30,555 bases of DNA, taken from contig CAYIDT010000001.1 in the NCBI GenBank assembly GCA_964362265.1, forward strand, positions 1 through 30,555. Reading direction: 5' to 3'. Of the stretch, positions 7,621 through 30,449 are shown in pieces. Position 1 is the first letter of the stretch, and each line of letters opens with the position of its first letter. The position numbers were made by a program, and so were the translations under genes. Source of the stretch: an uncultured Gammaproteobacteria bacterium (GTDB lineage Bacteria > Patescibacteriota > Microgenomatia > Daviesbacterales > UBA10151). Under the pieces are notes generated by a model that did not search any database, was not told the origin of the DNA, and saw only the letters and a program-made list of their open reading frames with translations.

Positions 7621-9489
7621 TTATATATCAAACTTAAATTCTCTATCTCTATCCAGCTTAAAATCTTTTCTTTGGGAGCCGTTAAGTTTAACTTTATATT
7701 GAAAATCTTTTGCTCCGGGTTGTTTCTGAATCTTTAATTTATACTCATCTTTTGGACTATATAGAATTTCATATTCTATTTCCAGCTTTCTAGAATTTTG
7801 CGGCCTAACCGTTATAAAAGCCTCAAAAACGCTCTTTCCCAGCTCATCCCCAATTTGTCTTACCCCATCCTCTGATCCTCTACCTGAGATCAACTTACTT
7901 CCAATTGGCACATAAAATCTAACATAATCTCTGTTTATCCCGTTTAACCAAACTCCAAACCCTTGAGGATTTTTATATTCTATATTGATCTTTTTAGTAA
8001 CTTTTCCTTTATCAAATTTGATTTCCTGGGTGACTGTTTGTTCTACATAAAGATTTGATTTTCCTCCAGCAAAGTTAGAATCATTAATATGCAAAAAGTC
8101 TCCATCAAAGTCTTGAATTTCCCCTATCCAGTTTAGTTTTGCAAGTGCGCTTTGAGTTTTTTGATCATGCATATAAAACATAATATGTTTATGATTTGCA
8201 AGCCTTACAATCGTTTCTATTGCTTGCGGAATTTTTTCTGTTTCCGTACCAACAAGTTTTGCCAAAATCTGAGACATTAAAACTCCAAGTATTGCTTTTC
8301 TATCCTGAGTACCTTTAGCTGCAATTTCAGCATAATTTTCCAGTTCATATATAACGTTTGGACAATTGCAACGATGATCTACTTTGGAAGAATAAGGAGT
8401 ACCAAAAACATCAATTTCCCCAGTGACATCAATTAGTTCCTCAACAACTTGGGAATCTATATAAATAATCCCATCAAAGGGGAGTCCCTGTCCTAAATAC
8501 TCATACATCCTTTCAAATTCCTTTGCAGATGAAGGTAGATCAGGTGAAAGATTGGAATCCCTCATACTCCAGGCTTGCCTTGGTTGCCCTGAAACCTCAG
8601 GTAAATATCTAACGATAGGAGAAGGGGGCTTGAGAGGACAAACTTTGGATTCACAGGTACCTAGCAACCGCTCATCAAGCCTGTATATATCATCAGATAC
8701 AGTTGTTGTTATTTGACCTTTATCAACCTTTAAAAAGGCGTAGGCTGTAATAAAACCCCCTGTTGGGCGGATTTCCTTGTCATTTTGAAAAAGCAAAAGG
8801 TAGGTTTTAGGCTGAGCCTGCCCTAAAGTAGAGGGTGCAAGCGCCAGCACATCAATGTTGTCTGTAGCTGCCAAATAAACCCCTGTTATAAAATTCCTGA
8901 GGACTGAGATAGTTGACCTTGCAGGAAAACCTAGTAAATTTTCTGGCCATTTTTCGCCGTTAACATCTTTTACATCTTCTTTGGCCTTTTTAAGGTTGTC
9001 TTCTACTTTATCAAGCAGGGGAATTGTTTGATCCAAAACATTAATTAATTGTGAAACTCTATCCTGAGAAGGTATGGGTTTTCCCAGAAATCCAAGCTTT
9101 TCTTCTTTTGGCTTTAAATCCGCCAAAATCACCTCAACTGCTTTTAGCTCCTCCAATCCTCCTGAAGTAATACCTTTAACATCACTGTAATAACCACCAA
9201 TAATTGGAATAAACCTGAGCCAAAAAAGAAAATTAATAGAGGAATCTATTTTTAGGGCAGCATTTTTGATTGAGGAGGTCTCAACCTGAATTTGACCAAA
9301 ATTCTGATTCTGATAAGCAGAAGCTAGGGCTTTGCCATGGAGTTGGGCCTCTTTCACTCCTGAATAGGCCATATTTATGGGTACTCCCAAAACTAAACCT
9401 AAAAATATCAAAAACACTAAAAGCCGTACGAGAATTTTCCTTCCATTCCTTTTTGGTCTGGAGTATTTTCTATTCAAATTAATAATCAT
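7621..9489 (-). CDS. DUF4012 domain-containing membrane-anchored protein, 622 aa
   Basis: N-terminal TM, helical stalk, then family motifs YLLLFQNDKEIRPTGGFI, RDSNLSPDLPSSA, DGIIYID, NFAGGKSN, RDYVRFYVP, IQKQPG. Recognised from motifs; no search was run. Confidence 0.85.
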   Translation of the reverse strand: MIINLNRKYSRPKRNGRKILVRLLVFLIFLGLVLGVPINMAYSGVKEAQLHGKALASAYQNQNFGQIQVETSSIKNAALKIDSSINFLFWLRFIPIIGGYYSDVKGITSGGLEELKAVEVILADLKPKEEKLGFLGKPIPSQDRVSQLINVLDQTIPLLDKVEDNLKKAKEDVKDVNGEKWPENLLGFPARSTISVLRNFITGVYLAATDNIDVLALAPSTLGQAQPKTYLLLFQNDKEIRPTGGFITAYAFLKVDKGQITTTVSDDIYRLDERLLGTCESKVCPLKPPSPIVRYLPEVSGQPRQAWSMRDSNLSPDLPSSAKEFERMYEYLGQGLPFDGIIYIDSQVVEELIDVTGEIDVFGTPYSSKVDHRCNCPNVIYELENYAEIAAKGTQDRKAILGVLMSQILAKLVGTETEKIPQAIETIVRLANHKHIMFYMHDQKTQSALAKLNWIGEIQDFDGDFLHINDSNFAGGKSNLYVEQTVTQEIKFDKGKVTKKINIEYKNPQGFGVWLNGINRDYVRFYVPIGSKLISGRGSEDGVRQIGDELGKSVFEAFITVRPQNSRKLEIEYEILYSPKDEYKLKIQKQPGAKDFQYKVKLNGSQRKDFKLDRDREFKFDI

Positions 9490-10124
9490 TAAACCGCTCC
9501 TTTACCAGATAAAACAGCTGGTATAGTTTTTAAAAGAAGCCATAAATCGTAAGATATTGACTTCTTTTCCACATACTTGGCATCCATCTGAACTCTTTTA
9601 TCAAAATTAATCTCTGATCTTCCTGAAACTTGCCATACTCCTGTAATCCCGGGTTTACCGGATAAAATAATTTTAACAAATTTCCTGGAACTTGGGTACT
9701 TTACCTGTTGTTCCTCCAATTCAAATGGGTAATATGCCCTTGGCCCGACTAGACTCATTTCTCCTCTTAAAACATTAATGAGTTGCGGAAGTTCATCAAG
9801 GGAACTCTTTCTAATCCACCTCCCCACATGAGTAATCCTGGGGTCTTCATCAATCGGAAGTTTATAGCTATTTTTTTTATATTTTTCCAAAAGCTGCGGA
9901 TTATTATTTAACAACTCTTGTGCCCCAAGTATCATGGATCTAAACTTATACATTCTAAAAAGTTTACCATCTTTACTAACTCTCATCGGAATATCTGCAA
10001 AAATCGGACCCTTTGAATCAAGTTTTATGAAGAGCGAAATAAATAAAAAAAACGGTGAGAGTAAGCTAAGACCTATTATAGATCCAAAAATATCAATAAT
10101 CCTTTTGGCAAAATCATACATCAT
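9489..10124 (-). CDS. Small monotopic priming phosphoglycosyl transferase (Bac_transf; PglC/WcaJ C-terminal-like), 211 aa
   Basis: KRIIDIFGS, IKLDSKGP, FRMYKFRSM, DPRITHVGRWIRKSSLDELPQLINVLRGEMSLVGPR, KPGITGVWQVSGRS. Asp-Glu catalytic dyad present. Confidence 0.93.
   Translation of the reverse strand: MMYDFAKRIIDIFGSIIGLSLLSPFFLFISLFIKLDSKGPIFADIPMRVSKDGKLFRMYKFRSMILGAQELLNNNPQLLEKYKKNSYKLPIDEDPRITHVGRWIRKSSLDELPQLINVLRGEMSLVGPRAYYPFELEEQQVKYPSSRKFVKIILSGKPGITGVWQVSGRSEINFDKRVQMDAKYVEKKSISYDLWLLLKTIPAVLSGKGAV
9497..9502 (-). promoter_or_regulatory. Shine-Dalgarno site for the DUF4012 gene, inside the upstream CDS
   Basis: AAGGAG, 7 nt before the ATG at 9489. Confidence 0.6.
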
Positions 10125-10146
10125 TTTTAGCTTTGTTACATATAGT

Positions 10147-11160
10147 TTACCCTAAGTTAGCAAGTACCTGCTTAAAATTTTTTAAAAAGCTAGCTTTACT
10201 AAAGCTGGCAGCGTTTTTACAACAATCAATCGCTTTAATTTGATTCTTCAGACTATTAAAACGTATTATGGCCAAACTTAAACTCTCTATTGTTTGCTCG
10301 TCAAAAAAAATACCAGTTTTACCTTCAATGACTGTTTCCATTGCACCGCCTTTTCTATATGCAATAACCGGTTTACCTAAAGCTTGAGCCTCCAGTGCAG
10401 TTATTCCAAAGTCTTCTTCCCCAGGAATAATTAATGCTTTACAATCTGCAAGTACTTTAATAACTTCAGCATCTTCCAACCCCCCTGATATGATTTTTAG
10501 TGGAAGATTCAATCTCTTGCAGGTTTTTATAGCCAAATCAAACCGTTTATACTTGGTAGGCCTACCCACTATAACAAAATAATCTCCACTTGAACTTTTT
10601 ACTTCCATAAACCTCCCAAGATCAATAAAGGGATAAACTACTTTAGAATCCATTCTATATATTTTTTTTATTCTTCTTTTTGCGTTCCCAGATCCGGCTA
10701 AAAAGTAATCAACTCGCCGAGCACTCACAACATCATAAATCCGCAGTTTACTCATTAGCAGCTCCAACCATCCATAGGAAGTCTCTCCTGAAAAATGCCA
10801 TAAAAATCTGGGTGGGGTATGACAATAACAAACATGAGTTGTCCCGGGTTTTGTGATAATTGATTTTGCAAATCTGGTTGTATTAGAAATAACTAAATTA
10901 AATCCGGAAAAATCAAACTGTTCAAAAGCTATTGGATAAAATGGAAGTAGCCCCTTATATAAAGTTTTCCATCCAGGAATTATCTGTAAAAAAGAAGTTT
11001 GGATTTTTTTATTTCCAAATCGTTTTGCTAACTCTTTGTTATTTTGATCAAAAACTGATGTATAAATCGGAGCATCAGGATATATTTCACAAATTGCCTC
11101 AAGTACCCTCTCTGCCCCTCCCCATTGCACTAAATCATCATGAACTATGGCTACACGCAT
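10147..11160 (-). CDS. Glycosyltransferase family 4 (WbaZ-like), 337 aa
   Basis: MRVAIVHDDLVQWGGAERVL, CYCHTPPRFLW, EX7E motif EDFGITALE. Confidence 0.92.
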   Translation of the reverse strand: MRVAIVHDDLVQWGGAERVLEAICEIYPDAPIYTSVFDQNNKELAKRFGNKKIQTSFLQIIPGWKTLYKGLLPFYPIAFEQFDFSGFNLVISNTTRFAKSIITKPGTTHVCYCHTPPRFLWHFSGETSYGWLELLMSKLRIYDVVSARRVDYFLAGSGNAKRRIKKIYRMDSKVVYPFIDLGRFMEVKSSSGDYFVIVGRPTKYKRFDLAIKTCKRLNLPLKIISGGLEDAEVIKVLADCKALIIPGEEDFGITALEAQALGKPVIAYRKGGAMETVIEGKTGIFFDEQTIESLSLAIIRFNSLKNQIKAIDCCKNAASFSKASFLKNFKQVLANLG

Positions 11161-12239
11161 TTTTGATATACCTCCAATGTTTGTTTGGCCATTTTTTGAA
11201 AGTTAAAAAGTTTAACTCTTTTTCTACCTTTTTCTATCAATTCATTCCTCAAGCTAAAGTTACTTAGCATATGCGAAATATTGTTAGCCATATCATTAAT
11301 GTCCCGGGAATTAAAGTACAAAGCAGCATTACCACCCACTTCTCTTAATGAACCAATATCCGAACAAACAACCGGACAACCTAGGGCCATTGCCTCTAAA
11401 ACCGGAAGCCCAAATCCTTCTTCAAATGATGCCGTTACGAAACATTTAGCATTTTTATATAAAGCAACCAGTTCTTTGTCTGCTATATATCCGGTATAGA
11501 TAATATCAGGATTTTTAAATTCTTTTTTTATTCTTTGCCAAAAATAATTATCTTTTCCAGATAAAACAAGTTTCAAATTACTTTCTTTTAATTTCAAAAA
11601 CGCTTTTATTAACCCTTCCACATTTTTATGCGGATGAGCATTACCTACATACAATATATATGGGGATCTAACCCCACTTAGTAACTCATCATTTTTTTTC
11701 GATCGAAAAAAAATGTCATCAACTGCTTCTGGGGTTACTAATATTTTGGACCTACTTATTCTCCATTCGTTAATTAATTGTTTTTTTACAAATTCCGACG
11801 GGGTAAAAATTTTTTCTGAATTCCTAAGAGCGAATTCAAAAACTTTTGTGTATCCTAACTTCTTTATTCTAAAAGTTAAAGGGTCGTGGAAACTTGTATT
11901 TCTAGTTGAATGATGCTGGTGAATTAAATCATGAATTGTTACAACAAATTTTCCACCATAGAAAATGGGCACATTAAAATGAGGAAAATGAACTAGGTCC
12001 GGCTTAATTTTGTTTAAAATTTGGGGCAAAAATATTTGTTCTTTAACTGTATACCATTTAAAATCAGCCAAAACTTTATAGAAATTCTGATTAAAATTCA
12101 GACTATAATAATCGTCTTTCAATAACAAAATATAATATTCATTTTTTTTATCCAGTTTTTGTAACTCATTAATTAAATTCCGTAAATACCTACCAATTCC
12201 CGAAGCATTTATCATCCTGGCATCTATTGCAATTCTCAT
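11151..12239 (-). CDS. Glycosyltransferase family 4 (MtfB-like), 362 aa
   Basis: MRIAIDAR..SGIGRY, VTIHDL, YVGNAHPHKN, EGFGLPVLEAMALGCPVV. Confidence 0.93.
   Translation of the reverse strand: MRIAIDARMINASGIGRYLRNLINELQKLDKKNEYYILLLKDDYYSLNFNQNFYKVLADFKWYTVKEQIFLPQILNKIKPDLVHFPHFNVPIFYGGKFVVTIHDLIHQHHSTRNTSFHDPLTFRIKKLGYTKVFEFALRNSEKIFTPSEFVKKQLINEWRISRSKILVTPEAVDDIFFRSKKNDELLSGVRSPYILYVGNAHPHKNVEGLIKAFLKLKESNLKLVLSGKDNYFWQRIKKEFKNPDIIYTGYIADKELVALYKNAKCFVTASFEEGFGLPVLEAMALGCPVVCSDIGSLREVGGNAALYFNSRDINDMANNISHMLSNFSLRNELIEKGRKRVKLFNFQKMAKQTLEVYQKCV
11170..11175 (-). promoter_or_regulatory. Shine-Dalgarno site for the WbaZ-like GT4, inside the upstream CDS
   Basis: GGAGGT, 9 nt before the ATG at 11160. 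Confidence 0.6.
11690..11715. repeat. Perfect 26-bp palindrome inside a GT4 gene
   Basis: CATTTTTTTTCGATCGAAAAAAAATG is its own reverse complement. Confidence 0.95.
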
Positions 12240-12240
12240 C

Positions 12241-13107
12241 TCAAACCACCATTTCCCTTTTTGCCAAAAACCATTTTATATTAATTGCCAAATATACTAT
12301 CCAATTTATGAAAAAAGGATAACTACCTTCCAGATGTTTTTTATAAAAGATTTTCATGGTTAAATAAAAAGCATCTAATGACCGCTTCCGCGTTTCGATA
12401 TCAGCAGTAGTTATCTTTTGGGAGTGTTTTTTTAAGCCCGATGATACCCCTTTATAATGGATAATATGTACCTCTGGAACATACATTATTTTAAATCCTG
12501 CTTGTTTTATACGCATACTTAAATCTAGATCCTCAGCATACATAAAATAATCTTCATCAAATAAACCAACTTTTTCTAAAACTGATTTTCTTGTTAGGAA
12601 AAAGGATCCGGAAATCCCATCTACTTCGTGAGGTTTATCCATTGGTTTTCCTGATAGATGATACAAACTATCATGACCTAAAAAATAAAGTAAAGAAGCC
12701 AAGGGTGTTGGTAATCCTCGATGGGCTGCCCAGTCCAAACTTCCATCTGAAAGAACTACCTTACAACTAGCTGCTCCAACATTGGGATTTTTATCCATGA
12801 AATTAATCATATAAGATAAAACGTCTCTTGTTATTTCTGTATCAGGATTAAGAATTAACACATATTCTGAATAAATTTTTTTCAGAACTAAATTATGCGC
12901 TTTTGCAAAACCTAAATTAATCTTGCTTTCAATAAAGTTCACCCATTGAAATTTCTCTTTTGCCAAAACCAGGCTATTATCTGTTGAAGCATTATCAACT
13001 ACATAAACTTCAAAACTCCCCTCATCTTTAATATCCTCCAAAGATTTTAGTAAGTGGCTCAAATACCTATCGGTATTAAAATTGACTATACTAATTGTGA
13101 GTTTCAT
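12241..13107 (-). CDS. Glycosyltransferase family 2 (WbbL/rhamnosyltransferase-like), about 288 aa
   Basis: ISIVNFNT, VVDNASTD, NLGFAKAHN, LNPDT, FDEDYFMYAEDLD. An alternative ATG at 13119 adds 4 aa. Confidence 0.9.
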   Translation of the reverse strand: MKLTISIVNFNTDRYLSHLLKSLEDIKDEGSFEVYVVDNASTDNSLVLAKEKFQWVNFIESKINLGFAKAHNLVLKKIYSEYVLILNPDTEITRDVLSYMINFMDKNPNVGAASCKVVLSDGSLDWAAHRGLPTPLASLLYFLGHDSLYHLSGKPMDKPHEVDGISGSFFLTRKSVLEKVGLFDEDYFMYAEDLDLSMRIKQAGFKIMYVPEVHIIHYKGVSSGLKKHSQKITTADIETRKRSLDAFYLTMKIFYKKHLEGSYPFFINWIVYLAINIKWFLAKREMVV

Positions 13108-14287
13108 AAAGTTCTTCATAAATTCCGCTTAATTTTTCAGCTATAGCTTTATAGGAATATTTTTCCTTAATGAGTTTTCTTGCATTTTCGGCAATTTTTT
13201 TGTAAAGATTTTTATCTTGAAGCAATTTAACTGCCATCTTCGCAAGTTGTTCCTCTGAGTTTCCTACCAAGACAGATTGGTTGTTTTCTGCATCAATTCC
13301 TTCAATTCCTATCGGTGTTGTTACAACAGGCAAATTGGATGCCATAGCACCAAGAATTTTAAGTCTGGTGCCTCCGGGTCCATATAAAGGAGCAAGTAAA
13401 ATGCCTGAGGTCTGATACGCCTCTTTCACACCATCTATATCATCAATTTTTAGGTTTTTCAAACTTATTCCTTCACTTTGCAGATTTTCGACTTTTTCTG
13501 TATTTTGACCTGCTATCAAAATTTTCGCATCGGATAAAACTTTAACAATATTTGGAAAAACAACCCTTGCTAAAATTCTAGCAGCTTCTATATTTTGAAG
13601 CCATGCATAATTTCCCATAAAAAGAATTGTTTTATTAAAATGGAGAGGGACATTTTCCATTAAATCCTCTCCTACACCATTAGACACAACCTCGACCTTA
13701 AGCCCCTTCACAAGTTTTTTCATAACTTCTGCATCTCTCTCTGATACAGCCACAACTTTTGATGCTTTTTTCCAATAATATGTCTCCCAGAATTTTATTT
13801 TTAATACGTCTAAAAAAAGTAAAGGTCTTAAAGCAGGCCACTTAAAATTTTTTACGAAGTGTAAATAGACTTCATATTCGATTGTCTGATCTACCAAAAC
13901 AATCGGAATCCTTGTTTTTGGAATATGTGGGCTAACATAAAAAGTTTCAGCATGTATAATATCAAAATCTTCTGTATTTAAAAGATCTTTTACCTCCTCT
14001 TTTTCTTCTACTGAATAATTTCTAATTACCAAAAAGGGGAAAGTGCTGAAACCTGTCTTTAAAATATTTGACAGCGTCCAGGGTTTTTCTGCCCTTTTAA
14101 AAACTAAAACTTTCTCACAGTACTTTTCTAGCTGGTTAACATATTTTTTTTCATCTTCATACTTAATTAGTGAACACAGGGTAATTTTATGTTTTTTTGA
14201 TAACTCCCTAATTAAATTATATGAGCGGATCTGACCTCCAGATGAAGGCGGATAGGGTAAATATGGGGTGAGCATAAGTATCTTCAT
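13091..14287 (-). CDS. Glycosyltransferase family 4, 398 aa
   Basis: MKILMLTPYLPYPPSSGGQIRSYNL N-terminus and C-terminal APLYGPGGTRLKIL-AMASNLPVVTT, typical of a GT4 subfamily. The nucleotide-binding Glu is replaced (see findings). Confidence 0.88.
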   Translation of the reverse strand: MKILMLTPYLPYPPSSGGQIRSYNLIRELSKKHKITLCSLIKYEDEKKYVNQLEKYCEKVLVFKRAEKPWTLSNILKTGFSTFPFLVIRNYSVEEKEEVKDLLNTEDFDIIHAETFYVSPHIPKTRIPIVLVDQTIEYEVYLHFVKNFKWPALRPLLFLDVLKIKFWETYYWKKASKVVAVSERDAEVMKKLVKGLKVEVVSNGVGEDLMENVPLHFNKTILFMGNYAWLQNIEAARILARVVFPNIVKVLSDAKILIAGQNTEKVENLQSEGISLKNLKIDDIDGVKEAYQTSGILLAPLYGPGGTRLKILGAMASNLPVVTTPIGIEGIDAENNQSVLVGNSEEQLAKMAVKLLQDKNLYKKIAENARKLIKEKYSYKAIAEKLSGIYEELYETHN

Positions 14288-15765
14288 GGCTCTTTATCAT
14301 CCGCAGTTAATGGTTTCTCAATCCTTGTTAAATCCGCTATTACAAACCTTGGATTATCTTCTAGGATTTTAAAATGGCGCAAAACCCAATTAGTTTTATC
14401 ATCCCTGTTTACAGAAACATAATGGGTAACTCCATATCTTGAAACAAGCTCCAGTACTGGGAATGCTCCAACTGGAAAACCTGGTCTGTTTATATGATAT
14501 AAAAAAGCGTTGTCACCATTATATGGGGCTAAAACTAAAGCTTCTTTTGGTAAAATTTTATCAGCAAAAATACCAGCTTCTATAATGGGCGGATTATTTA
14601 TTTTATACAGTTCCTTTACTTGTGTCCAGGTAAAGTAAATAGATAAAGGCAAAAAAATTAATGCTAAAATAATTGTAAAAATTCTTGGAACAAAACCACT
14701 AATACCTTTTATTAAGTTTATAAATCCTACTGCCACAAAAATAGATGCCACAGGAACAAAAATAAATTGATAATAATCATGTCTTACATTTCCTGTTGCA
14801 AAAATTATAAAGTAAAGAAAAAAAGAAAGAGCAAATATATGGAAAAAAAAGTTACCATTTCTAGGACGAAGCAGAAATCCTAGGAAAAATAAAAATGATC
14901 CAGTTACACCTAAAATTTCCCTTCCTATTCGCTCAGAAATAATCCACCACCAAAAGCTAGGCCTAAATCTTATTTCATCTCCATTAAGAAGCCAATTAGA
15001 TGCAGGGATACCTTCTGGAGTTTGTAATATCCAGGCTCTCCAAAAAATAAACGGTAAAATTCCTAACAGTACAAAGTTTAAGTATTTTAGAGGTATCGGC
15101 CAGATTTTTCCTTGCTTTTTTAAGGCAGAGTAAATAAGTGGTAAGACAAAAAAGATAGCCCAAGGTTTTATTAAAAAGGCAGCCCATGTAAATACAAGTG
15201 CCCACCAAGTTCTCCCTCTTTTATCCCCTTCCTCCCAAATCCATCTATCAACGAAGTACATCATACCAAGGGAAAAAAATACAAAAGTTGGCTCAGGGAG
15301 CGTGGTTCTTGAGAAAAATACGTTAAATGGAAGAGTTGCAAAAACAAGTGAGGAAACTAGGGCAACTACAATACCTAGATATTTTTTAGCTAATAGATAT
15401 AGAAAAACTAAACTACCTAAAGAAAAAATGACGGAAATCAGACGATGCAATCTTTCATCCACCCCAAATAACAGATAAAATGGATAAACTGCAATGTTAT
15501 ATATTGGAAATTCTACAAACCGTAACCGACCGGGATTCGGTATAGGCCGCTCTGCTACACCGCTCATATCATCATATTTAGGCCAAAACGGATTGAATCC
15601 TTCTTTAATAAAGTTTCTTGTGACAGAAGCTGTATCTGCTTGTCTCCATGAATGCCAATCAGCTATTGGCGACTCTATTTTGTAAAGACGAAGCATCAAT
15701 CCTAGAATTAAAATCATCCCTAAATATAAATATTGATTTTTAAATATTTTTAATATTTTTTTCAT
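14284..15765 (-). CDS. GT-C fold membrane glycosyltransferase (ArnT/PMT_2-like), 493 aa
   Basis: About 11-13 hydrophobic segments. First external loop ADWHSWRQADT with acidic residues, EFPIYN, SRTTLPEP, HDYYQ, C-terminal soluble domain. Confidence 0.8.
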   Translation of the reverse strand: MKKILKIFKNQYLYLGMILILGLMLRLYKIESPIADWHSWRQADTASVTRNFIKEGFNPFWPKYDDMSGVAERPIPNPGRLRFVEFPIYNIAVYPFYLLFGVDERLHRLISVIFSLGSLVFLYLLAKKYLGIVVALVSSLVFATLPFNVFFSRTTLPEPTFVFFSLGMMYFVDRWIWEEGDKRGRTWWALVFTWAAFLIKPWAIFFVLPLIYSALKKQGKIWPIPLKYLNFVLLGILPFIFWRAWILQTPEGIPASNWLLNGDEIRFRPSFWWWIISERIGREILGVTGSFLFFLGFLLRPRNGNFFFHIFALSFFLYFIIFATGNVRHDYYQFIFVPVASIFVAVGFINLIKGISGFVPRIFTIILALIFLPLSIYFTWTQVKELYKINNPPIIEAGIFADKILPKEALVLAPYNGDNAFLYHINRPGFPVGAFPVLELVSRYGVTHYVSVNRDDKTNWVLRHFKILEDNPRFVIADLTRIEKPLTADDKEP

Positions 15766-20291: not shown

Positions 20292-20297
20292 ATATAA

Positions 20298-21314: not shown

Positions 21315-21318
21315 GAAA

Positions 21319-23555: not shown

Positions 23556-24631
23556 GATACTAGCTCCTCAAATAAATTTTCATATTGTTTTGCTACTTTA
23601 TCCCAGGAAAATTTTTCAGTCTGTTTTCTTGGCTTATCGCCCCAATTAATCTGTAGTGTCTCCTCCAGCGCTTTTGCATATAGATTAGGCCTAGTAGTAT
23701 CTACAAATACTCCCGCATCTCCTATAATTTCCCTTCGAATGGGGTCATCAGTTGCTACAACCGGTAGACCTGATGCCATTGCCTCAAGTAAAACCAGGCC
23801 AAATGATTCCCATGGGGACGTAGGAAACGTAAAAAGAGCAACACTTCTATAAATTTTTGGTATTTCCTCGTGAGGAAGAAGTAAAATTTTAAACCGGCCG
23901 GGAAGCAGTTTATCTCCTAAATCTTGCAGATCATTTTTAAGCTCTCCTTTTCCCGCCAAAATCAGAGAACCTTTTCTTAGGTCTGCCACAGCTTTTATAA
24001 TAAGATCAAGTCTTTTCATTGGAACGAGCGCTGCAACCGTTAAAATAATGGGTTTTGGAAGATTAAATTCCATCTTTTCTCCTTGGGAGCTAAATTTTTT
24101 CATATCAACTCCATTCGGAATCTTTACAATCTTAACAAAAGGATTAACTTTTTTAGCCCAATTACATTGATAATCTGTAAATCCTACAAAGCAATCCGGA
24201 AATGTTAAAAGATTAATTCTATCGTCCCAACCAGGACCCGCTTGACCAACAACAATAATTTTACCAACCCCTGATAGTTTGGGTAGTAGTATTTCCCAAC
24301 CATTATTCCAAGGAACGACAATATCATATTTTTGCTTTTTTAAAATTGGCAAAGCCTTTTTAGTAAATTCTTTTACTGCAATTGACATTTCATCAAGATA
24401 AAGCCTTCGTCCAAGGTTCAACTTTGGTTCCAAAACTTTGGGTTGCCAATTATTTTCAATCTGTATAACTTTATACTTTGTTTTATTAGAAGACTTCCCT
24501 GCTTGAAAAACCGTTACATCACAGCTTTGATTAATTCTTGAAGCAAGCTCTTTAACCAATACTTCAACTCCCCGTTCATAAATCCCGTTAAAAAAACTTA
24601 AAAAAGCAATCTTTAATCTTTTCTTTGCCAT
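23552..24631 (-). CDS. Glycosyltransferase family 4, 359 aa
   Basis: IPNGVD, ILTVAALVPMKRLD, ESFGLVLLEAMASGLPVV. Confidence 0.9.
   Translation of the reverse strand: MAKKRLKIAFLSFFNGIYERGVEVLVKELASRINQSCDVTVFQAGKSSNKTKYKVIQIENNWQPKVLEPKLNLGRRLYLDEMSIAVKEFTKKALPILKKQKYDIVVPWNNGWEILLPKLSGVGKIIVVGQAGPGWDDRINLLTFPDCFVGFTDYQCNWAKKVNPFVKIVKIPNGVDMKKFSSQGEKMEFNLPKPIILTVAALVPMKRLDLIIKAVADLRKGSLILAGKGELKNDLQDLGDKLLPGRFKILLLPHEEIPKIYRSVALFTFPTSPWESFGLVLLEAMASGLPVVATDDPIRREIIGDAGVFVDTTRPNLYAKALEETLQINWGDKPRKQTEKFSWDKVAKQYENLFEELVS
23564..23569 (-). promoter_or_regulatory. Shine-Dalgarno site for the GT2 at 23555, inside the upstream CDS
   Basis: GAGGAG, 8 nt before the ATG. Confidence 0.6.
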
Positions 24632-25965
24632 ACTTGAACTCCTTTCTCAAACTGTGCAGTTTTTTCGTAGTGTTGCCTTATATACTCAACTATCCTTTTT
24701 GGCTGATACGTTCCCAAACTATACCAATTTCCAATTTGTGGAATCTGCCAAACAATTATTTTGGGCTTTTCTCTTTCAAAGCCTGCCAAAACTTTATCCT
24801 GCATACCGTCAATTTCCATGTACCAGACATAGTTATCTACCCAAGGTTTAGGAGGTAAACGGTTCGATAAAACGTATTCTATTGAGGGCACACCCAGCAA
24901 ATAAATCCTGTTGCTGGGTAAGGTTAACTCATCAATTTGTTTTGCTAAAGCTATTTCCTGAGGACCATAAAATCTGGCTGGCAAATTTATATTACCCAAA
25001 TTACTTTTAACTAAAACGACACTTACCAGTAAAATTGGCAAACTTACAATTAAAGCATTTTTCTTGTTTAAAATTAAAGATAGTAATACTATATAAACTG
25101 CCACTGCTGGTTGAAATCTGAAAAAATCAAACCTTGGAAAAGCTACCAAAAAAGTACCAGCAAAGATAAGTAATATTATTTTGAAAATTTCGCCTCTTTT
25201 GTTCCATTGATTTAAACCATTAAAACAAGCTAATAGTCCAGGTATAAAGAGAATAAAAATCTCTATAAATTCTTTAGTAGATGGCCAATTGGAATAACCT
25301 GGGAATTTGGGGTACCAAAAAAGTGGAACAATTGTTGTCCAAAATAAATAGTCGCCCATTAAACCACTCGAGATGATAAACAACAAAACTAATATCACTG
25401 GTACCACAAGTCCAAAGAAAAATTTAGGTAACTGCCTAAATTGTCTATATACCAAGAAATAAACTATCAGAAGAATAATCGCAACTCCTGTTTGCTGTTT
25501 GATAAAAAAAGCAAACGACAGAAAAAATCCCATCCAAAAGGTTTTTCTGTAAAGGCTTGATAGAATTCCAAGGAGAATAAATGGTACTGTCGCCAAATCA
25601 AACCAAAGCATGTTCCCAGAAGTTAAAGGTTGAACAAAAATATAAAGACTAAGTGGCACTAAACTCAACGCTTTTTTACCAATTATTTTTCTTGAGATAA
25701 AAAATATTAAAAAATCTGAGATTAAAATTGTAGTCCATGTAAAAAGTTGGAGAGTCAAAAGATTAAAGCCAAATATTTTGTAAACAACAGAAAGTATCAG
25801 TACTAAAAGCGGTTGGTAAGGCAAAGCAATATCTTGATACAGTTTAAAACTATTATTTAGTAAATATGGATAAGAAAACATTTCCGGCCAAGCAGTAAAC
25901 TGCAAATTAAAAAGAATAAATAAGTGAATTACTAAAAGAAATATTACACCTATAATAATTTTCAT
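24613..25965 (-). CDS. Probable GT-C fold membrane glycosyltransferase, 450 aa
   Basis: About 10-12 TMs. First loop TAWPE...LYQDIALPYQPL, LWFD, FIKQ, C-terminal soluble domain. This is the same architecture as the other GT-C ORFs. Confidence 0.7.
   Translation of the reverse strand: MKIIIGVIFLLVIHLFILFNLQFTAWPEMFSYPYLLNNSFKLYQDIALPYQPLLVLILSVVYKIFGFNLLTLQLFTWTTILISDFLIFFISRKIIGKKALSLVPLSLYIFVQPLTSGNMLWFDLATVPFILLGILSSLYRKTFWMGFFLSFAFFIKQQTGVAIILLIVYFLVYRQFRQLPKFFFGLVVPVILVLLFIISSGLMGDYLFWTTIVPLFWYPKFPGYSNWPSTKEFIEIFILFIPGLLACFNGLNQWNKRGEIFKIILLIFAGTFLVAFPRFDFFRFQPAVAVYIVLLSLILNKKNALIVSLPILLVSVVLVKSNLGNINLPARFYGPQEIALAKQIDELTLPSNRIYLLGVPSIEYVLSNRLPPKPWVDNYVWYMEIDGMQDKVLAGFEREKPKIIVWQIPQIGNWYSLGTYQPKRIVEYIRQHYEKTAQFEKGVQVWQRKD
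24639..24644 (-). promoter_or_regulatory. Shine-Dalgarno site for the GT4 at 24631, inside the upstream CDS
   Basis: AAGGAG, 7 nt before the ATG. Confidence 0.6.
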
Positions 25966-25976
25966 GTTAAGTTATG

Positions 25977-26786
25977 TTATGTTTTCCTTGCTATAACCAT
26001 TAAGTCAGATCCTAGTCCTAATTTAGAAACTACCCATGCAGGAACAGCTGTTAAAGCTTCCTTAAAAAATCTTTTTTTGAAACTAAATAAAGACAATAAA
26101 ACTCCACCGATTGGACTTCCATAGTCCCAAATTCCGGAGGCTTTTTCTATAAAGATAACCTTAAATCCTATTTTTTTTAAAAGCAGCAATAAAGACTTCT
26201 CCGAAAAATGCCAAAGGTGCTCATCCGGTAAAAGTAATGGCCAATTTGTTCCCAGAAGTTTTGCGGATAAACCACCGAAATTAGGAAGGTCAATATAAAG
26301 CAATCCACTAGGGGAGAGTAAGCTTTTAATTTTTTCTAAAATCCTAACAGGATGATCCATATGCTCTAATGTATGATTTAAAATCACTAGGTCATATTTT
26401 TCATCTAAATTTGTTTGCATAAAATCCCACACCGTTACAGGAATTCCACGTTTCGCTGCTACCCCGGCTGCCTTTTTTGAAATCTCAACCCCCACTACCT
26501 CCCACCCCAAATTTTTTAAAAGAGAAAGCATTATTCCAGTTGAACAACCAATTTCCAGCACCTTACCTTCCTTCTTAAATTTTAAGATTTTATCTACTCT
26601 TTTCTGAAAAATATTTTTAAATAATTTTTCCTCCTCTATATAAACTTCATCCCTATGATACTTCCCTTTTTGAACATCCAACTTATCAGTTTGCCCAAAA
26701 ACACAATACGAACATTTAAGTATCAAGTAATTTTCAATTTCCGCAAACTTTTTTAAATTATGTCCACAAATTAAACAAGTATTCAT
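25977..26786 (-). CDS. Class I SAM-dependent methyltransferase with N-terminal CxxC..CxxC zinc ribbon, 269 aa
   Basis: CLIC and CSYC, motif I VLEIGCSTG, VGVEIS, YDLVILNHTLEH, LYIDLPN, EHLWHFS. Confidence 0.9.
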   Translation of the reverse strand: MNTCLICGHNLKKFAEIENYLILKCSYCVFGQTDKLDVQKGKYHRDEVYIEEEKLFKNIFQKRVDKILKFKKEGKVLEIGCSTGIMLSLLKNLGWEVVGVEISKKAAGVAAKRGIPVTVWDFMQTNLDEKYDLVILNHTLEHMDHPVRILEKIKSLLSPSGLLYIDLPNFGGLSAKLLGTNWPLLLPDEHLWHFSEKSLLLLLKKIGFKVIFIEKASGIWDYGSPIGGVLLSLFSFKKRFFKEALTAVPAWVVSKLGLGSDLMVIARKT

Positions 26787-27577
26787 AGAATTCGCCTTTT
26801 TAATTTTTTTAGTGGTGTTTCTATGGATGCTCTTATTTTATAAACACTGGACATCCTTACCCAAGGAGAAGGAACCTCCAATGGTCTCTCAAGATAGAAC
26901 ACTTCTGGATACTTAAAATTTTTAGGGAAAGGAATTCCAAGCTCATATTTAAATTTTCTATGTGAAGTAGATCTTGGGAGATGGGTAAAATGTAGGTAAG
27001 GAGTGTCTATAAACTTAAGTTTATCGTCAATCATTTGAAGCGCTCGATCGTTTTTATCATAAAAAGCTTCCAGTGGATAATCTCCCTTCAAATGAAGTCC
27101 TGGAATTTTTCTGTTAATAGCTCTTATATTAAGATGTCCCTTTTTACCTAAAATCTCATACTTACCTGCCATTTCCTCCTGATAATGATAAATATCTCCA
27201 ACTAAATTAATAACTGGAGTAACAATCGCATATAAATTATCCCCCTGCTTTTCAATAACAGAAATTATTTTTCTTATTGAATTCTCCCACCAGACTTCAT
27301 CACCATCTAAAATGAAAATCCAATCACAAATTGAAGCTTCTAACATTTGCTGACGAAGAGAAGTTATTCCCTTTGGCTTTTGGGAACCAAATGCCTTAAA
27401 CTCAATCTTTCCCGGGAACTCATTTATTAATCCTTTTACAATCTCTACCGTATTATCGCTACTTCCCGTATCCCAAATAAGCATTTTGTCTAAAAATTCG
27501 ATTACGCTCTTTACTGCAAAGTAAATATATCGGTCCTCATTTTTTACAATGCAGTTTCCCCAAATTTTTTTAGACAT
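26783..27577 (-). CDS. Glycosyltransferase family 2, 264 aa
   Basis: CIVKNEDRYI, IWDTGSSDNT, WIFILDGDEV (DxD), HFTH. Confidence 0.87.
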   Translation of the reverse strand: MSKKIWGNCIVKNEDRYIYFAVKSVIEFLDKMLIWDTGSSDNTVEIVKGLINEFPGKIEFKAFGSQKPKGITSLRQQMLEASICDWIFILDGDEVWWENSIRKIISVIEKQGDNLYAIVTPVINLVGDIYHYQEEMAGKYEILGKKGHLNIRAINRKIPGLHLKGDYPLEAFYDKNDRALQMIDDKLKFIDTPYLHFTHLPRSTSHRKFKYELGIPFPKNFKYPEVFYLERPLEVPSPWVRMSSVYKIRASIETPLKKLKRRIL

Positions 27578-27586
27578 AACTTGAGT

Positions 27587-30253
27587 TTAGCTTTTTTTAA
27601 AAAATATTGCCACAGAGGAAAGTATAAGAATTATTATTGAGGCAATCGATATTTTCACTCCCAAGTCTACCTTTTCCTGAGGTTTATATAAAAGTTTTAA
27701 ATCTTCCTGTATATTTGCAGGTATAAAAAATCCGTTAATCATAGAATAAAATGGAAGCGGTTTAATTTTTTGATCAGAAAGTAGTTCCCATCCTTTATCA
27801 TAGTGATCAGAAAAAACTAACCATTTTGGTTTTTCTGTTGATATATCAATTGAATAACTTGTTGGGTTATACTCTGTATAGAAAACTTCTTCAAACTTTA
27901 AATTTGAAAGGATCTCCCGTAATCTAAACTCATCTAAAACTTTATCCAAATCCATTACTTCAAACTTATTAAATAATTTTTCAGCGTTTTCGGAAGCGTT
28001 TACAAACTGTTCTTTTGAGAAAACTCCTACAATATTAACAGCATTAAATCCTCCTATATTCTCAATTTTTATAGCCTTTTCGCCTTTGGATAAATTAAAA
28101 GGCCCAAATATACTCCATTTAAATCGGGAGCTAGGTTTTATAATATTCTCATTACCATCTAAATTAATTTTTATCCCTGCGCTGTTTGTAGCCGAAATAC
28201 TTCTTACCCCTAAATAATAATCATCAATTTTATTAATATTTGTAAGAAATTCAATTTTCTCTCCCTTAATAGTTGAGAAATCTAATCCTTTTCCGAAAAG
28301 TAAATCCTGTGTTTTTATGTCATATTTTAGAAGTTCTGATTTTATATCTAAATATTGATCAGCTTTATATCTCCCCCAATCACTTTTACTAAACTCTTTT
28401 GAGAAGTTTTTTTGTAAAAATGTAATTTTTATATCATCTTTTGTTCTGTCTTTAAGAACTAGCAGCGCGGAATCCTCTGGTAAGGTCAAAAGATATTCCG
28501 GATCTAATAATCCATCCTCTAAAAATATGAATCCTTGATTCGACAGATTAAAATTATCAATTTCGTCCTGAAGTTTTTTATATATACTCATATCTCCTAA
28601 ACCCAAGATAACTTTAGCCTGAGTAAATATTTTTGGATTTGGATCCGAAACCTGGTAGATTGGAAATTCTAAATTCCAATCTAATTTTTTAAACCCTAAA
28701 GAATCTATAAATTTCAAAAATAATTTCCTGTTTTCTAAATCCTTATCATTCCAGATTTTTTTACGTTCATCCGGAGGAAATAAGGCATATTTAATACCTA
28801 AAAGCGCAAACCAGTCTTTCAATTGTGAATCATGTAGAAAATAAAACAAATCGTAGGAACCCTCTATCATCAAGGCAAAAGGTTTATCCTGAGATAAAGT
28901 ATTTGCAGATATAGCTTCTTTTTTAATCGTAGAATATGCAAGGGGAGGTTGTTCTGGAAACCAAATACTTCTAAAAAATAAGTTGTCCTTATTAAAATTC
29001 TGATGAATAATCTCATAATCCTGATTAAAAGCTTTACCCGCCAAAACACCAGTTAATCCTCCTTTAAAAACAGGATTAATAAGAAAAAGTATATAGAAAT
29101 AAACAAAATACAAAAATATGAGCCTTATCTTTCTACTACTTATATGTTTTATAAACTGTCTAATGGTGAAGGGGAGTACACATGCTGAAAAGAGTAAAGT
29201 AGGTATAAAAAATTTAGAGGAATCCCTAAATGAGTCGGCGAAGGGAATATTATCCAGCAACCATTGATATAAATTCCCAAATGGTTCTTCTATTCCCTTT
29301 GCAAAAAAAATAAAAATTAATAAAGATAGAATAAAAGATAGGACTTGTTTATTTTTTTCAAACAAAACCGTGGAGAAAACTAGAAGAGGCAGTAATCCAA
29401 AATAAAAAGGTATCGTTGAAAGTTTACCGAATTCATTCCTAGGAAAATGAGGATTATACAAAAATAATGCATCTAATATCGTGATTAGTTGATTTATCGA
29501 TGAAGACTTAATTATAGAAGGATCTTTTAATAAATCAATTAACGATAAAACCCAAAATGCGTTGATTAATGCGGTACATACAATTATTGGTAATAAAAAA
29601 AATAATATTTTTAACCTATTAGAGTTTCCATAAATAATAAATTCTGTAAATTGAAGTATTAAAAATGAGAATAACAATAATATCGTAATCCTTACATCAA
29701 TATTTGAAAGCAAAATAAAAGATACAGCGCTGAAAATAAAATTTCTAACACTCTGGTTGTCTGCAAATTTCTTAAAAAATAATAAACAAAAGGGGAACAA
29801 ACCATAGGCTAAACTAACTCCGACTTGACCTCCATCAAGAAGTACTAAAAAGTGTGTATTAAATTCATAAAATAGACTCCCCAAAAAAGCTAGCCAGCTA
29901 TTTTTAATGTAGCTTTTAATGAAAAAAAAACTTCCTAAAAAAGCAAGGATTGTTGAGGGAAAATAAAATACTAATCTTATTAAAGCTGAACTATCTAATC
30001 CAAAAAGTTGATTTAATAAGCCTAGTATAAAGGTAGGAAAATAAAGCCATAAAACTGAGGCTTGCGACTCCCCAAAATTATTATTCCTAAAATCCCAAAC
30101 TAAAGGTTTATCAAAAAGTGATTTTAAATTCTCAGGATAAAAAAATGGAGCATCGGCGAAAACTAGAGGTCCCGGGTAAAAAAATGCACTGAATACTACT
30201 AAATATGGCAGAATAAACAGAGCAAATAAATTAAATATCTCAAGCTTTTTCAT
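27587..30253 (-). CDS. Large YfhO-like GT-C membrane protein, 888 aa
   Basis: N-terminal multi-TM region with an acidic first loop (VFADAPF), FRDSSKF, a ~430 aa soluble region, a YfhO-like tail (NPTSY..WLVFSDHYDKGW..INGF..YKPQ..LG..IS) and a final TM. The ORF-track start at 30265 is TTG; the ATG at 30253 is preferred. Confidence 0.72.
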   Translation of the reverse strand: MKKLEIFNLFALFILPYLVVFSAFFYPGPLVFADAPFFYPENLKSLFDKPLVWDFRNNNFGESQASVLWLYFPTFILGLLNQLFGLDSSALIRLVFYFPSTILAFLGSFFFIKSYIKNSWLAFLGSLFYEFNTHFLVLLDGGQVGVSLAYGLFPFCLLFFKKFADNQSVRNFIFSAVSFILLSNIDVRITILLLFSFLILQFTEFIIYGNSNRLKILFFLLPIIVCTALINAFWVLSLIDLLKDPSIIKSSSINQLITILDALFLYNPHFPRNEFGKLSTIPFYFGLLPLLVFSTVLFEKNKQVLSFILSLLIFIFFAKGIEEPFGNLYQWLLDNIPFADSFRDSSKFFIPTLLFSACVLPFTIRQFIKHISSRKIRLIFLYFVYFYILFLINPVFKGGLTGVLAGKAFNQDYEIIHQNFNKDNLFFRSIWFPEQPPLAYSTIKKEAISANTLSQDKPFALMIEGSYDLFYFLHDSQLKDWFALLGIKYALFPPDERKKIWNDKDLENRKLFLKFIDSLGFKKLDWNLEFPIYQVSDPNPKIFTQAKVILGLGDMSIYKKLQDEIDNFNLSNQGFIFLEDGLLDPEYLLTLPEDSALLVLKDRTKDDIKITFLQKNFSKEFSKSDWGRYKADQYLDIKSELLKYDIKTQDLLFGKGLDFSTIKGEKIEFLTNINKIDDYYLGVRSISATNSAGIKINLDGNENIIKPSSRFKWSIFGPFNLSKGEKAIKIENIGGFNAVNIVGVFSKEQFVNASENAEKLFNKFEVMDLDKVLDEFRLREILSNLKFEEVFYTEYNPTSYSIDISTEKPKWLVFSDHYDKGWELLSDQKIKPLPFYSMINGFFIPANIQEDLKLLYKPQEKVDLGVKISIASIIILILSSVAIFFKKS

Positions 30254-30449
30254 GCCAAATATCAAAAAGCAGACTATATAAAAAAATTAAAAAAGTTAAT
30301 ATAATCAAATTATGAGCAAAATTTAAACGATTTAGTAAAAGCGCTACGGAAATGACAGCAATTGTTAAAATAGGTACAGCAAAATAAACTCCTCTTGATG
30401 GTCTAATAGTGAGTAAAAATACTATCCACAATAAGCTAATAGTGAACAT
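30240..30449 (-). CDS. Small hydrophobic membrane protein, 69 aa
   Basis: ATG start, 2-3 TM segments, 14-nt overlap with the next gene, and a consensus-like promoter just upstream. Confidence 0.55.
   Translation of the reverse strand: MFTISLLWIVFLLTIRPSRGVYFAVPILTIAVISVALLLNRLNFAHNLIILTFLIFLYSLLFDIWHEKA

Follow-up and report, generated by a model that had tools for sequence, protein, structure and literature searches.

What envelope molecule does a cell make with a glycan gene set that takes up 3.6% of a 633-kb assembly, and to what is that molecule attached? The locus that raises this question lies at positions 7621-30449, on the minus strand, of a 30,555-nucleotide window (the whole stretch of DNA analysed here), the opening part of a 32-kb scaffold that belongs to a metagenome-assembled genome (MAG) of 94 contigs and 37% GC. 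Over about 23 kb, transcribed from high to low coordinates, it encodes one PglC-type phosphoglycosyl transferase (PGT), six GT4 and four GT2 glycosyltransferases (GTs), four GT-C membrane glycosyltransferases, one Wzy_C-like protein (WzyC), a WcaF-like acetyltransferase (AT), a methyltransferase (MT), two orphan membrane proteins and, as its last gene, a DUF4012 protein (gene names as in Table 1). The original prediction, made from the letters before any database search, had listed these genes, and each was confirmed at its place on the minus strand by open reading frames (ORFs), Pfam and NCBIfam.

The best explanation of our results is that this is the Daviesbacteria version of a housekeeping locus found throughout the class Microgenomatia, placed upstream of the division and cell wall (dcw) genes in a monoderm-like cell. 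We propose, with moderate confidence, that its product is a secondary cell-wall polymer, a core component anchored to the wall, which is assembled by a Wzy-type route and decorated by GT-C enzymes. The envelope chemistry of the candidate phyla radiation (CPR, Patescibacteria) is barely known, yet it is the interface of episymbiotic life; this locus is the most conserved glycan gene set of its class and a concrete candidate for the main wall polymer.

The organism is a Candidatus Daviesbacteria MAG (Microgenomates, CPR), in line with the CPR-like character first suspected: the closest homologues of its DUF4012 protein, at 60-74% identity, come from Candidatus Daviesbacteria and Microgenomates. 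A search of the assembly, which is 84.7% complete and 0.23% contaminated, found no LpxC, no Omp85/BamA and no SLH domain. The genome has MurJ, one canonical LytR-CpsA-Psr (LCP) gene (contig C5) and, grouped on contig C10, six or more pilin-like genes that carry N_methyl motifs. Given the incomplete assembly, this fits a monoderm-like cell without lipopolysaccharide (LPS). The claim that the glycan goes to an acceptor other than lipid A was borne out to this extent, as neither LpxC nor Omp85, and so no full lipid A/Lpt pathway, was found.

Conservation of the locus across Microgenomatia

Gene order is shared well beyond the window genome. On three contigs with close DUF4012 homologues, one of them a complete 820-kb Daviesbacteria genome, the genes from the acetyltransferase to DUF4012 stand in the same order, followed by RecO, GlyRS, MraZ, RsmH, FtsL, FtsI and Mur ligases. 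For a broader comparison, the 40 kb surrounding the WzyC orthologue were taken from each of 20 class genomes, and all window proteins were searched against the ORFs of these regions. The recurrent order was mem888-GT2-MT-GT-C-GT4-GT2-GT-C-GT4-GT4-AT-unk189-GT2-WzyC-GT-C-GT4-GT2-GT4-GT4-PGT-DUF4012-RecO-GlyRS-...-MraZ-RsmH-FtsL-FtsI. Seven other genera of the same family, as well as families f2 and f3, retain nearly all of the 23-kb arrangement. A core (GT4e-GT4d-AT-(unk189)-GT2b-WzyC-GTC1-GT4c-GT2a-GT4b-GT4a-PGT-DUF4012-RecO-GlyRS), in most cases with the dcw genes after it, persists in eight of the ten genomes from more distant families; in G089 and G139 the cassette lies apart from PGT-DUF4012. 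The distal part, from mem888 to GTC2, is more variable.

A DUF4012 orthologue was detected in 149 of 151 class genomes at E ≤ 1e-40 (133 of the 134 high-quality ones) and a WzyC orthologue in 137 of the 151; one unpublished genome, G068, contributes one count to each of these tallies. In more than 60 genomes one contig carries both the WzyC and the DUF4012 gene, separated by 7-17 kb; in families f49 and f7 the two are far apart, the remark on f7 also including G068. In a phylum-wide sample, WzyC matched all 13 Microgenomatia as well as the window genome, and 15 of 237 other Patescibacteria, all weakly. Among 1.84 billion cluster representatives, only 826 matched WzyC at E ≤ 0.001.

Across families of the class, protein identity ranges from 30 to 70% and gene order is kept. 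The retention of order at this level of identity, together with the tie to the division and wall cluster, argues for a housekeeping wall-polymer locus and not for a serotype-variable capsule or O-antigen locus; judged by these sequence comparisons, the locus behaves like a core housekeeping wall-polymer locus. The PGT-DUF4012-Wzy_C-GT-C neighbourhood is strongly conserved in relatives, and the gene set does not map wholly onto a known Wzx/Wzy capsule locus, both as the original prediction had implied. Small insertions into the core module are tolerated, since the closest relative, with 74% identity in DUF4012, has two small ORFs and a gene with a GrpB domain between GT4b and GT4a (L007:7264-8338).

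Family f28 offers a natural replacement of the cassette. Its six genomes are without the Asp-type WzyC described below and retain DUF4012. In G081 (C1 418001-458000) and G028 (C1 355001-395000; loci L098-L101), the order GT4a-PGT-DUF4012-RecO-GlyRS-...-dcw is unchanged, and the cassettes upstream differ from each other and from the Daviesbacteria locus. Common to the two are a Wzx flippase, other GT4s and a Wzy_C protein of the canonical His type (54.8 and 71.3 bits), and a GT-C is missing from both; G081 additionally has a TagF-like Glyphos_transf protein (a glycerophosphotransferase), a cytidylyltransferase and a UDP-sugar dehydrogenase. By its protein families, the f28 cassette is a classic wall-polymer gene set, with the Wzy_C protein in the polymerase slot. 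Because PGT and DUF4012 are kept where the cassette is replaced, the two probably form an invariant start-and-finish pair, with an exchangeable cassette upstream, and the Asp-variant WzyC goes together with its GT-C partners. The invariant pair and its swappable cassette are possible markers for envelope types in metagenomes.

The DUF4012 protein, WzyC and the GT-C enzymes

The AlphaFold model of the full-length DUF4012 protein (pLDDT 84, pTM 0.80) comprises a transmembrane (TM) helix, a helical stalk of about 180 residues that reaches to about residue 220, an alpha/beta domain (224-452) and a beta-sandwich (461-622). Hydropathy gives a single hydrophobic segment at 19-37, and the model helix 16-60 runs on into the stalk. 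The predicted layout, an N-terminal membrane anchor with an extracytoplasmic domain, is that of LCP enzymes.

Folded alone, the DUF4012 domain gave a pLDDT of 85.6, and in a fold search with this model the top 11 of 48,161 PDB chains were all LCP proteins (Cps2A, MsrR, LcpA, TagU, TagT, BrpA and structural-genomics LCPs). Foldseek with the domain also placed LCP chains first (best E 7.7e-4), and the fold search with the full-length model returned the same ten LCP matches. With Foldseek, the full-length model matched PDB and Swiss-Prot models only through its C-terminal beta-sandwich (OST1/ribophorin-, ITIH- and M1-aminopeptidase-like), and among AFDB clusters it matched only other DUF4012 proteins. 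Residues D237, E239, R241, D267, R310, D345, R397 and K398 are invariant in the family. The original prediction had left the acceptor as peptidoglycan or a surface protein; the modelled LCP-like fold tilts the balance towards peptidoglycan and suggests a function for an orphan family.

A role of DUF4012 as a Wzz-like co-polymerase was considered and rejected. Wzz-type co-polymerases have two TM helices; the DUF4012 protein has one, no named Wzz/PCP structure stands out among the 50 fold-search matches listed for the full-length model, and no Wzz domain was found in the genome. DUF4012 has been listed as a CPR-enriched family common to CPR and Gram-positives (PMC6744442), and a DUF4012 gene lies between the priming transferase and wzz in a Bifidobacterium longum exopolysaccharide (EPS) locus (PMC5412050). 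The literature searched, which excludes most subscription journals, yielded neither a link between DUF4012 and LCP proteins nor a description of the present locus in CPR. A second DUF4012 protein of the window genome (C38:2151-4862, L084; 903 aa) has an N-terminal NAD-dependent epimerase/dehydratase domain, and so joins a cytoplasmic sugar-nucleotide enzyme to an LCP-fold ectodomain family.

The PGT that accompanies DUF4012 scores 193.6 bits with Bac_transf (cut-off 27), a match that spans positions 1-178 of the 179 in the profile. It has a single N-terminal hydrophobic helix (15-33, hydropathy scan). Its matches to the WbaP, WcaJ and EPS models of NCBIfam fall below their cut-offs and are confined to the C-terminal catalytic domain, the last ~200 positions. 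These features point to the small monotopic PglC type, without the N-terminal membrane domain of WbaP.

WzyC scores on either side of the curated Pfam cut-off for Wzy_C (PF04932, 31.7 bits), with 31.0 bits in hmmscan and 34.2 bits in a six-frame genome search, and its orthologues P0244 and P0257 reach 50 bits. About 11 hydrophobic segments, a gap between residues 273 and 383 and a conserved motif at 369-389 suggest a polytopic membrane protein with a large extracytoplasmic loop before the C-terminal motif. In this motif, ATDNDYLRSLGETG, residue D375 replaces the His of WaaL and PglL. An alignment of 52 sequences gives A-T-D-N-D-Y-L-R-x-L-G-E-T-G-x-L-G with D375 invariant, and Asp occupies this position in 144 of 145 aligned relatives. 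Opposite D375 stands the His of SHNIVLQLLAEMGISG in a weak match (E 0.067) to PDB 9rmk_A, an oligosaccharyltransferase of the PglL type, and likewise the His of TPHNTYLRILVESGVVG ('TPHNTYLRIL') in G028 of family f28, where a canonical Wzy_C protein occupies the corresponding place in the locus. A Wzy_C paralogue on contig C60 of the same genome keeps 'SAHNLYLQ', and further Wzy_C paralogues lie on contigs C25 and C26. Searched against the PDB, the WzyC family profile gave this one weak PglL-type match and no WaaL, and a single orthologue as query gave no match.

The His at this position is essential in WaaL and PglL, and WzyC, as read from its alignment, would not carry this catalytic residue of the H-N-x-Y/F-L motif. 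The label 'variant ligase' in the original prediction thus caught a real, family-wide change, one that defines a subfamily. WzyC shares with WaaL and PglL a probable place in the Wzy_C superfamily, a polytopic layout with a large outside loop and an alignable xN-x-Y-L-R-x-L-G-E-T-G motif region; it differs from both in the Asp and in its frequent fusion to GT-C proteins, and from WaaL also in that no lipid A-core acceptor pathway was found in this genome and its profile matches no WaaL structure by sequence.

The fusions concern the neighbouring gene. WzyC and GTC1 form a single ORF in G110 and G104, and 35 of the 150 best cluster representatives of WzyC are at least 950 aa long. Three of these long proteins have a BLAST-detectable GT-C in the C-terminal half; in the others this half is polytopic and gives hhalign matches to GTC1, GTC2 and mem450 at a probability of 95%. 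As they recur, the fusions argue that the Wzy_C domain and the GT-C domain act in one step or complex, and they point to an unstudied extracytoplasmic step. A structure-based complex prediction for WzyC and GTC1, run without controls, scored 0.00 and speaks neither for nor against binding. In a few long WzyC relatives a Metallophos match (calcineurin-like phosphoesterase) replaces or adjoins the GT-C extension; in P0257 and P0270 it is C-terminal and weak (20.1 and 19.3 bits, cut-off 21.5).

Two of the four GT-C enzymes, mem450 and mem888, have no Pfam family and are also GT-C. The orthologue profile of mem450 matches GTC1 at 96.0% and GTC2 at 96.8% hhalign probability, and its language-model look-alikes in the Atlas are PMT_2 clusters. 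For mem888, the Atlas model matches YfhO and AftD-like clusters (TM-score 0.68-0.69 over ~720-750 residues), and hhalign gives 77% against GTC2. All four proteins have an acidic residue right after TM1 (GTC1 D36 and D44, GTC2 D24-E25, mem450 E28, mem888 D38), each kept in at least 90% of orthologues.

GT-C genes are also numerous elsewhere in the assembly. At least 14 are present, namely the four in the window, five tandem PMT_2 paralogues on contig C9 and five on contig C2 (C2:3610-22500 and C9:334-12728; loci L081-L083), and the five on C2 include a YfhO-like protein and a GT2-PMT_2 fusion. With ~36 GT2/GT4 ORFs and three Wzx flippases, the GT-C/GT2/GT4/Wzx share of so small a genome is unusually large.

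The locus itself is not self-sufficient, as the flippase and the polyprenyl-P-sugar synthase are encoded on other contigs. The window contains no match to Polysacc_synt or MurJ and no GtrA domain, and neither DUF2304 nor a Wzz/PCP domain was found in the genome; Pfam also found no tyrosine-kinase-type co-polymerase among the locus genes. The pair of Wzx and Wzz in one locus, standard for Wzx/Wzy systems, is thus lacking here, as are the synthase and the small flippase or activator beside a GT-C that mark three- and four-component transmembrane glycosylation. Three Wzx paralogues lie on contigs C2, C9 and C26, and a Wzx-like gene stands within the distal module of the locus in G001, G002, G023, G104 and G109.

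None of GT2a-GT2d resembles a polyprenyl-P-sugar synthase. The best PDB sequence matches of GT2c are GalT1, chondroitin synthase and TarS, with DPMS, GtrB and ArnC matching weakly, and GT2b and GT2d match generic GT-A enzymes. A role of the locus GT2s as lipid-P-sugar synthases is accordingly not supported, their PDB sequence matches being of the generic GT-A kind and not DPMS, GtrB or ArnC. Contig C2 encodes a GT2-GtrA_DPMS_TM synthase and a GT2-PMT_2 fusion (724 aa), and by their domain composition these two could supply polyprenyl-P-sugars.

Proposed route to a wall-anchored polymer and competing explanations

In the route we propose, the PGT primes synthesis by placing a sugar-1-phosphate on polyprenyl phosphate, the established function of its family. 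Up to ten GT4 and GT2 enzymes would then build an oligosaccharide on polyprenyl diphosphate, which the acetyltransferase and the methyltransferase would mark in the cytoplasm. A Wzx-type flippase, encoded on another contig here and within the locus in several sister families, would move the unit outward. At the outer face, the Asp-variant WzyC with GTC1 would most likely polymerise the units and add a side-chain sugar, and the three other GT-C enzymes would add sugars from polyprenyl-P-sugar donors made in trans. The LCP-fold DUF4012 protein would finally move the finished chain from its lipid diphosphate to peptidoglycan. The gene families, synteny, fusions, fold likeness and lack of LPS markers are results of the analysis, whereas the order of steps, the choice of polymerase over ligase for WzyC and the acceptor are what we infer here; the gene content supports the hybrid inside/outside lipid-linked assembly line, with heavy GT-C involvement, that the original prediction had described.

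Several points weigh against this proposal. With Asp in place of an essential His, WzyC could be a ligase, a polymerase or something else. The likeness of DUF4012 to LCP proteins is one of predicted fold only: the Pfam LytR_cpsA_psr model gave no match to the DUF4012 protein even at E ≤ 10, hhalign against 31 Microgenomatia LCP proteins reached a probability of 3%, its match being local and confined to the 'D-x-x-F-x-x-x-I-D-x-L-G-G-I' region, and the DUF4012 profile found no match among PDB sequences. As sequence methods miss the relation, we speak of an LCP fold and not of a member of the LCP family. In addition, every class genome sampled (41 of 41) has a canonical LCP gene, so DUF4012 is not needed to explain wall anchoring; the protein would be an additional transferase, one candidate among others beside the canonical LCP enzyme. 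The donors for the GT-C enzymes are assumed, given the GT2 matches above, the polymer and its acceptor are predictions from the genes, and absences from this assembly are provisional.

Among other explanations, protein O-glycosylation survives best, and we consider it unlikely. Here WzyC would be an O-oligosaccharyltransferase of the PglL/PilO/WsaB type that transfers the glycan en bloc to type IV pilins or a surface protein, with the GT-C enzymes extending it and DUF4012 as an accessory. WzyC does probably belong to the Wzy_C superfamily, the only PDB sequence match of its family profile, albeit weak, is the PglL-type 9rmk, and PMT-type GT-C enzymes are protein O-mannosyltransferases in other organisms. 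Pilins were among the possible acceptors named in the original prediction, pilin-like genes cluster on C10, and pili are a CPR hallmark (PMC6744442). However, the catalytic His of PglL and WaaL is replaced family-wide, the locus adjoins dcw and peptidoglycan genes and not pilus genes, and no SLH S-layer protein, the other protein acceptor named, was found in the genome. A conserved terminal gene with an LCP-like fold fits a wall acceptor, and the same slot in f28 holds a teichoic-acid-like cassette.

A membrane lipoglycan, made alone or together with a wall-bound form, is in our judgement improbable. WzyC would then be a TacL-type ligase to a glycolipid, and DUF4012 or the canonical LCP enzyme would attach the same chain to peptidoglycan. 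The precedent is Streptococcus pneumoniae, where LCP enzymes and TacL, a protein with a Wzy_C domain, draw on one undecaprenyl diphosphate-linked precursor, the former to load peptidoglycan and the latter a glycolipid (PMC5727136); the present locus likewise has both a Wzy_C-like and an LCP-fold protein. As WzyC is its sole Wzy_C-type gene, a ligase role would make the product a single long unit, decorated outside by GT-C enzymes. Against this, no glycolipid-anchor synthase was identified in the locus, the change from His to Asp argues against a straightforward WaaL/TacL mechanism, and the GT-C fusion is without counterpart in the TacL system.

An ordinary Wzx/Wzy capsule or EPS, free or loosely held at the cell, for attachment to hosts or surfaces, with the dcw position an accident of a compact genome, is very unlikely: EPS loci do usually combine a PGT and many GTs with an acetyltransferase and a Wzy_C protein, and DUF4012 occurs in the B. 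longum capsular polysaccharide (CPS)/EPS cluster (PMC5412050), but capsule and O-antigen loci vary by strain where this one keeps its order at such divergence, no Wzz/PCP domain was found in the genome and no tyrosine-kinase-type co-polymerase among the locus genes, and four GT-C enzymes and an LCP-fold terminal protein are foreign to standard EPS loci.

A core, wall-anchored polymer remains the reading that we prefer, and known systems supply analogues for most of its parts. Pneumococcal teichoic acid (TacF flippase, repeat-unit polymerase, LCP ligases and TacL; PMC5727136) is likewise a core envelope polymer of a monoderm and not a variable antigen, with a complex repeat unit on polyprenyl diphosphate and a Wzy_C-family protein and an LCP-type transferase at the outer face. 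It has no GT-C, where this locus has four; its Wzy_C protein has neither the Asp nor the frequent GT-C fusion seen here; the LCP-like enzyme here is a DUF4012 protein unseen by the LCP Pfam model; and the cassette in the family of the window organism has no choline or phosphate-polymer genes.

The rhamnose polysaccharides of lactococci and streptococci and the multi-component GT-C systems (WpsA-J, GacI/J/K/L, CsbB/GtcA/YfhO; PMC10821137, PMC8035078) resemble the proposed route in cytoplasmic assembly on a polyprenyl carrier, Wzx-type flipping, GT-C enzymes, including YfhO-like ones, that polymerise, transfer or decorate outside, and LCP anchoring. The present locus differs in having no rhamnan ABC-transporter branch, in that no GacJ/DUF2304 partner was found, in priming by a PglC-type PGT through a diphosphate link and not by a GacI/WpsA-type monophosphate synthase, and in a Wzy_C-type protein in addition to GT-C. 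Mycobacterial arabinogalactan (WecA, the GT-C enzymes AftA-D/Emb with decaprenyl-P-sugars, and Lcp1; established knowledge, see PMC6034362) is a wall polysaccharide, essential in mycobacteria, that is begun on polyprenyl diphosphate, finished outside by several GT-C enzymes (one here is AftD/YfhO-like) and ligated to peptidoglycan by an LCP fold. Unlike the present system, it uses no Wzy_C protein and is primed by WecA, of a different PGT superfamily; signs of arabinose or galactofuranose are missing here. Finally, the CPS/EPS locus of B. longum 105-A (PMC5412050) also has a DUF4012 gene beside the priming phosphoglycosyl transferase in a monoderm surface-polysaccharide cluster, but includes Wzz, has no GT-C and is strain-variable, whereas here no Wzz was found and the locus is class-wide and tied to dcw.

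These analogues make 'undescribed system', as the original prediction had it, too strong a term, since PGT, GT-A and GT-B enzymes, Wzy_C, GT-C and an LCP-like enzyme are all known kinds with counterparts in monoderms. What sets the locus apart is its class-wide fixation beside dcw, the pairing of an Asp-type Wzy_C with GT-C and an LCP-fold DUF4012 protein as terminal gene. A more far-reaching claim would join these features: a class-defining, probably essential wall-bound heteropolysaccharide inherited with dcw, made by an Asp-type Wzy_C/GT-C machine and anchored by DUF4012 as a second and highly divergent LCP-fold ligase family, both enzyme solutions not described before. We regard this joint claim as possible, though doubtful. 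If true, Asp-type Wzy_C and GT-C proteins, separate here and fused elsewhere, would jointly polymerise or transfer lipid-linked units, and a DUF4012 ligase family would also account for the DUF4012 genes that adjoin priming transferases in Actinobacteria, Chloroflexi and Cyanobacteria.

Gene organisation and neighbouring genes

Gene calls in the locus (Table 1) rest on Pfam, NCBIfam and a hydropathy scan.

Table 1. Genes of the glycan locus in order of transcription, with window positions.
Gene	Position	Strand	Description
sm69	30240-30449	-	69-aa small membrane protein, first gene; overlaps next gene by 14 nt
mem888	27587-30253	-	888 aa, YfhO/AftD-like GT-C; ~11 TM helices, large C-terminal ectodomain, terminal TM
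GT2d	26783-27577	-	Soluble GT-A (GT2); Pfam Glycos_transf_2 54.5 bits
MT	25977-26786	-	SAM-dependent methyltransferase; Methyltransf_23, Pfam 103 bits
mem450	24613-25965	-	450 aa, divergent PMT_2/ArnT-type GT-C; no Pfam match
GT4f	23552-24631	-	GT-B (GT4); Pfam Glycos_transf_1 91.1 bits
GT2c	22701-23555	-	GT2, one C-terminal hydrophobic helix (TM 231-249); Pfam 125.9 bits
GTC2	21319-22704	-	PMT_2-type GT-C; Pfam PMT_2 34.6 bits, PMT 27.5 bits
GT4e	20298-21350	-	GT4; Pfam 80.4 bits; start of class-wide core module by synteny
GT4d	19173-20291	-	GT4; Pfam 140.9 bits
AT	18574-19176	-	Hexapeptide-repeat O-acetyltransferase, WcaF-like; Pfam Hexapep; NCBIfam WcaF family 96.1 bits, under its cut-off
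unk189	18008-18577	-	189-aa orphan; N- and C-terminal TM helices flank ~130-aa outside domain
GT2b	17136-18011	-	GT2, C-terminal hydrophobic helix; paralogue of GT2a; Pfam 79.9 bits
WzyC	15740-17161	-	Probable Wzy_C-superfamily membrane protein, Asp variant; Pfam 31.0 / 34.2 bits
GTC1	14284-15765	-	PMT_2-type GT-C, WzyC partner; Pfam PMT_2 48.4 bits
GT4c	13091-14287	-	GT4; Pfam Glyco_trans_1_4 65.4 bits
GT2a	12241-13119	-	GT2; Pfam 71.2 bits
GT4b	11151-12239	-	GT4; Pfam 119.9 bits
GT4a	10147-11160	-	GT4; Pfam 69.9 bits; stays beside PGT even where upstream cassette is replaced (f28)
PGT	9489-10124	-	Predicted small monotopic PglC-type polyprenyl-phosphate phosphoglycosyl transferase, priming enzyme; 211 aa
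DUF4012 protein	7621-9489	-	622 aa; Pfam DUF4012 89.8 bits; proposed terminal glycopolymer transferase

Each of the 29 ORFs in the window is on the minus strand. Within the locus, neighbouring genes overlap by 1-32 nt at 15 of 20 junctions and are never more than 22 nt apart. This co-oriented, tight packing extends past position 7621 to take in recO, glyS, a purF-like gene and the gene for a 307-aa protein, and no real gap occurs until the 84 nt ahead of mraZ. As packing is unbroken beyond 7621, overlap alone does not define the unit, which is defined instead by conserved synteny. The description of the genes as 'one unit' holds in that they form a co-oriented, overlapping run with conserved synteny; it does not hold as regards a clear boundary at 7621.

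The other end of the locus lies near a scaffold gap. Across the gap of 100 N, on the opposite strand, is a 504-aa open frame (C1:30656-32169, L086) that is polytopic, with a YfhO-like look at its N terminus and no Pfam match. As the scaffold join and its orientation are provisional, so is the start of the locus.

Two small proteins of the locus stand outside known families. For sm69, no Pfam family was found at E ≤ 5 beyond one chance-level match, and the genome holds no paralogue; a role as a GacJ/DUF2304-type activator is not supported, given the same Pfam result and a genome search that found no DUF2304. unk189 matches no Pfam or NCBIfam family, is syntenic in 12 relatives and has as Atlas look-alikes unnamed Daviesbacteria and Woesebacteria clusters; it is seen only in Microgenomates.

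Between DUF4012 and the dcw genes, the purF-like gene (window 4282-5688), which stands between glyS and the 307-aa gene, is also present in the closest relative (L007). It was found at that place in none of the other 20 class genomes whose WzyC regions were compared, and it seems to have entered the conserved run recently. The adjoining 307-aa protein (window 3358-4281) has one N-terminal TM helix and no Pfam or NCBIfam family, and its gene, dcw-associated and encoding a membrane-anchored product, is kept between glyS and mraZ in most genomes examined.

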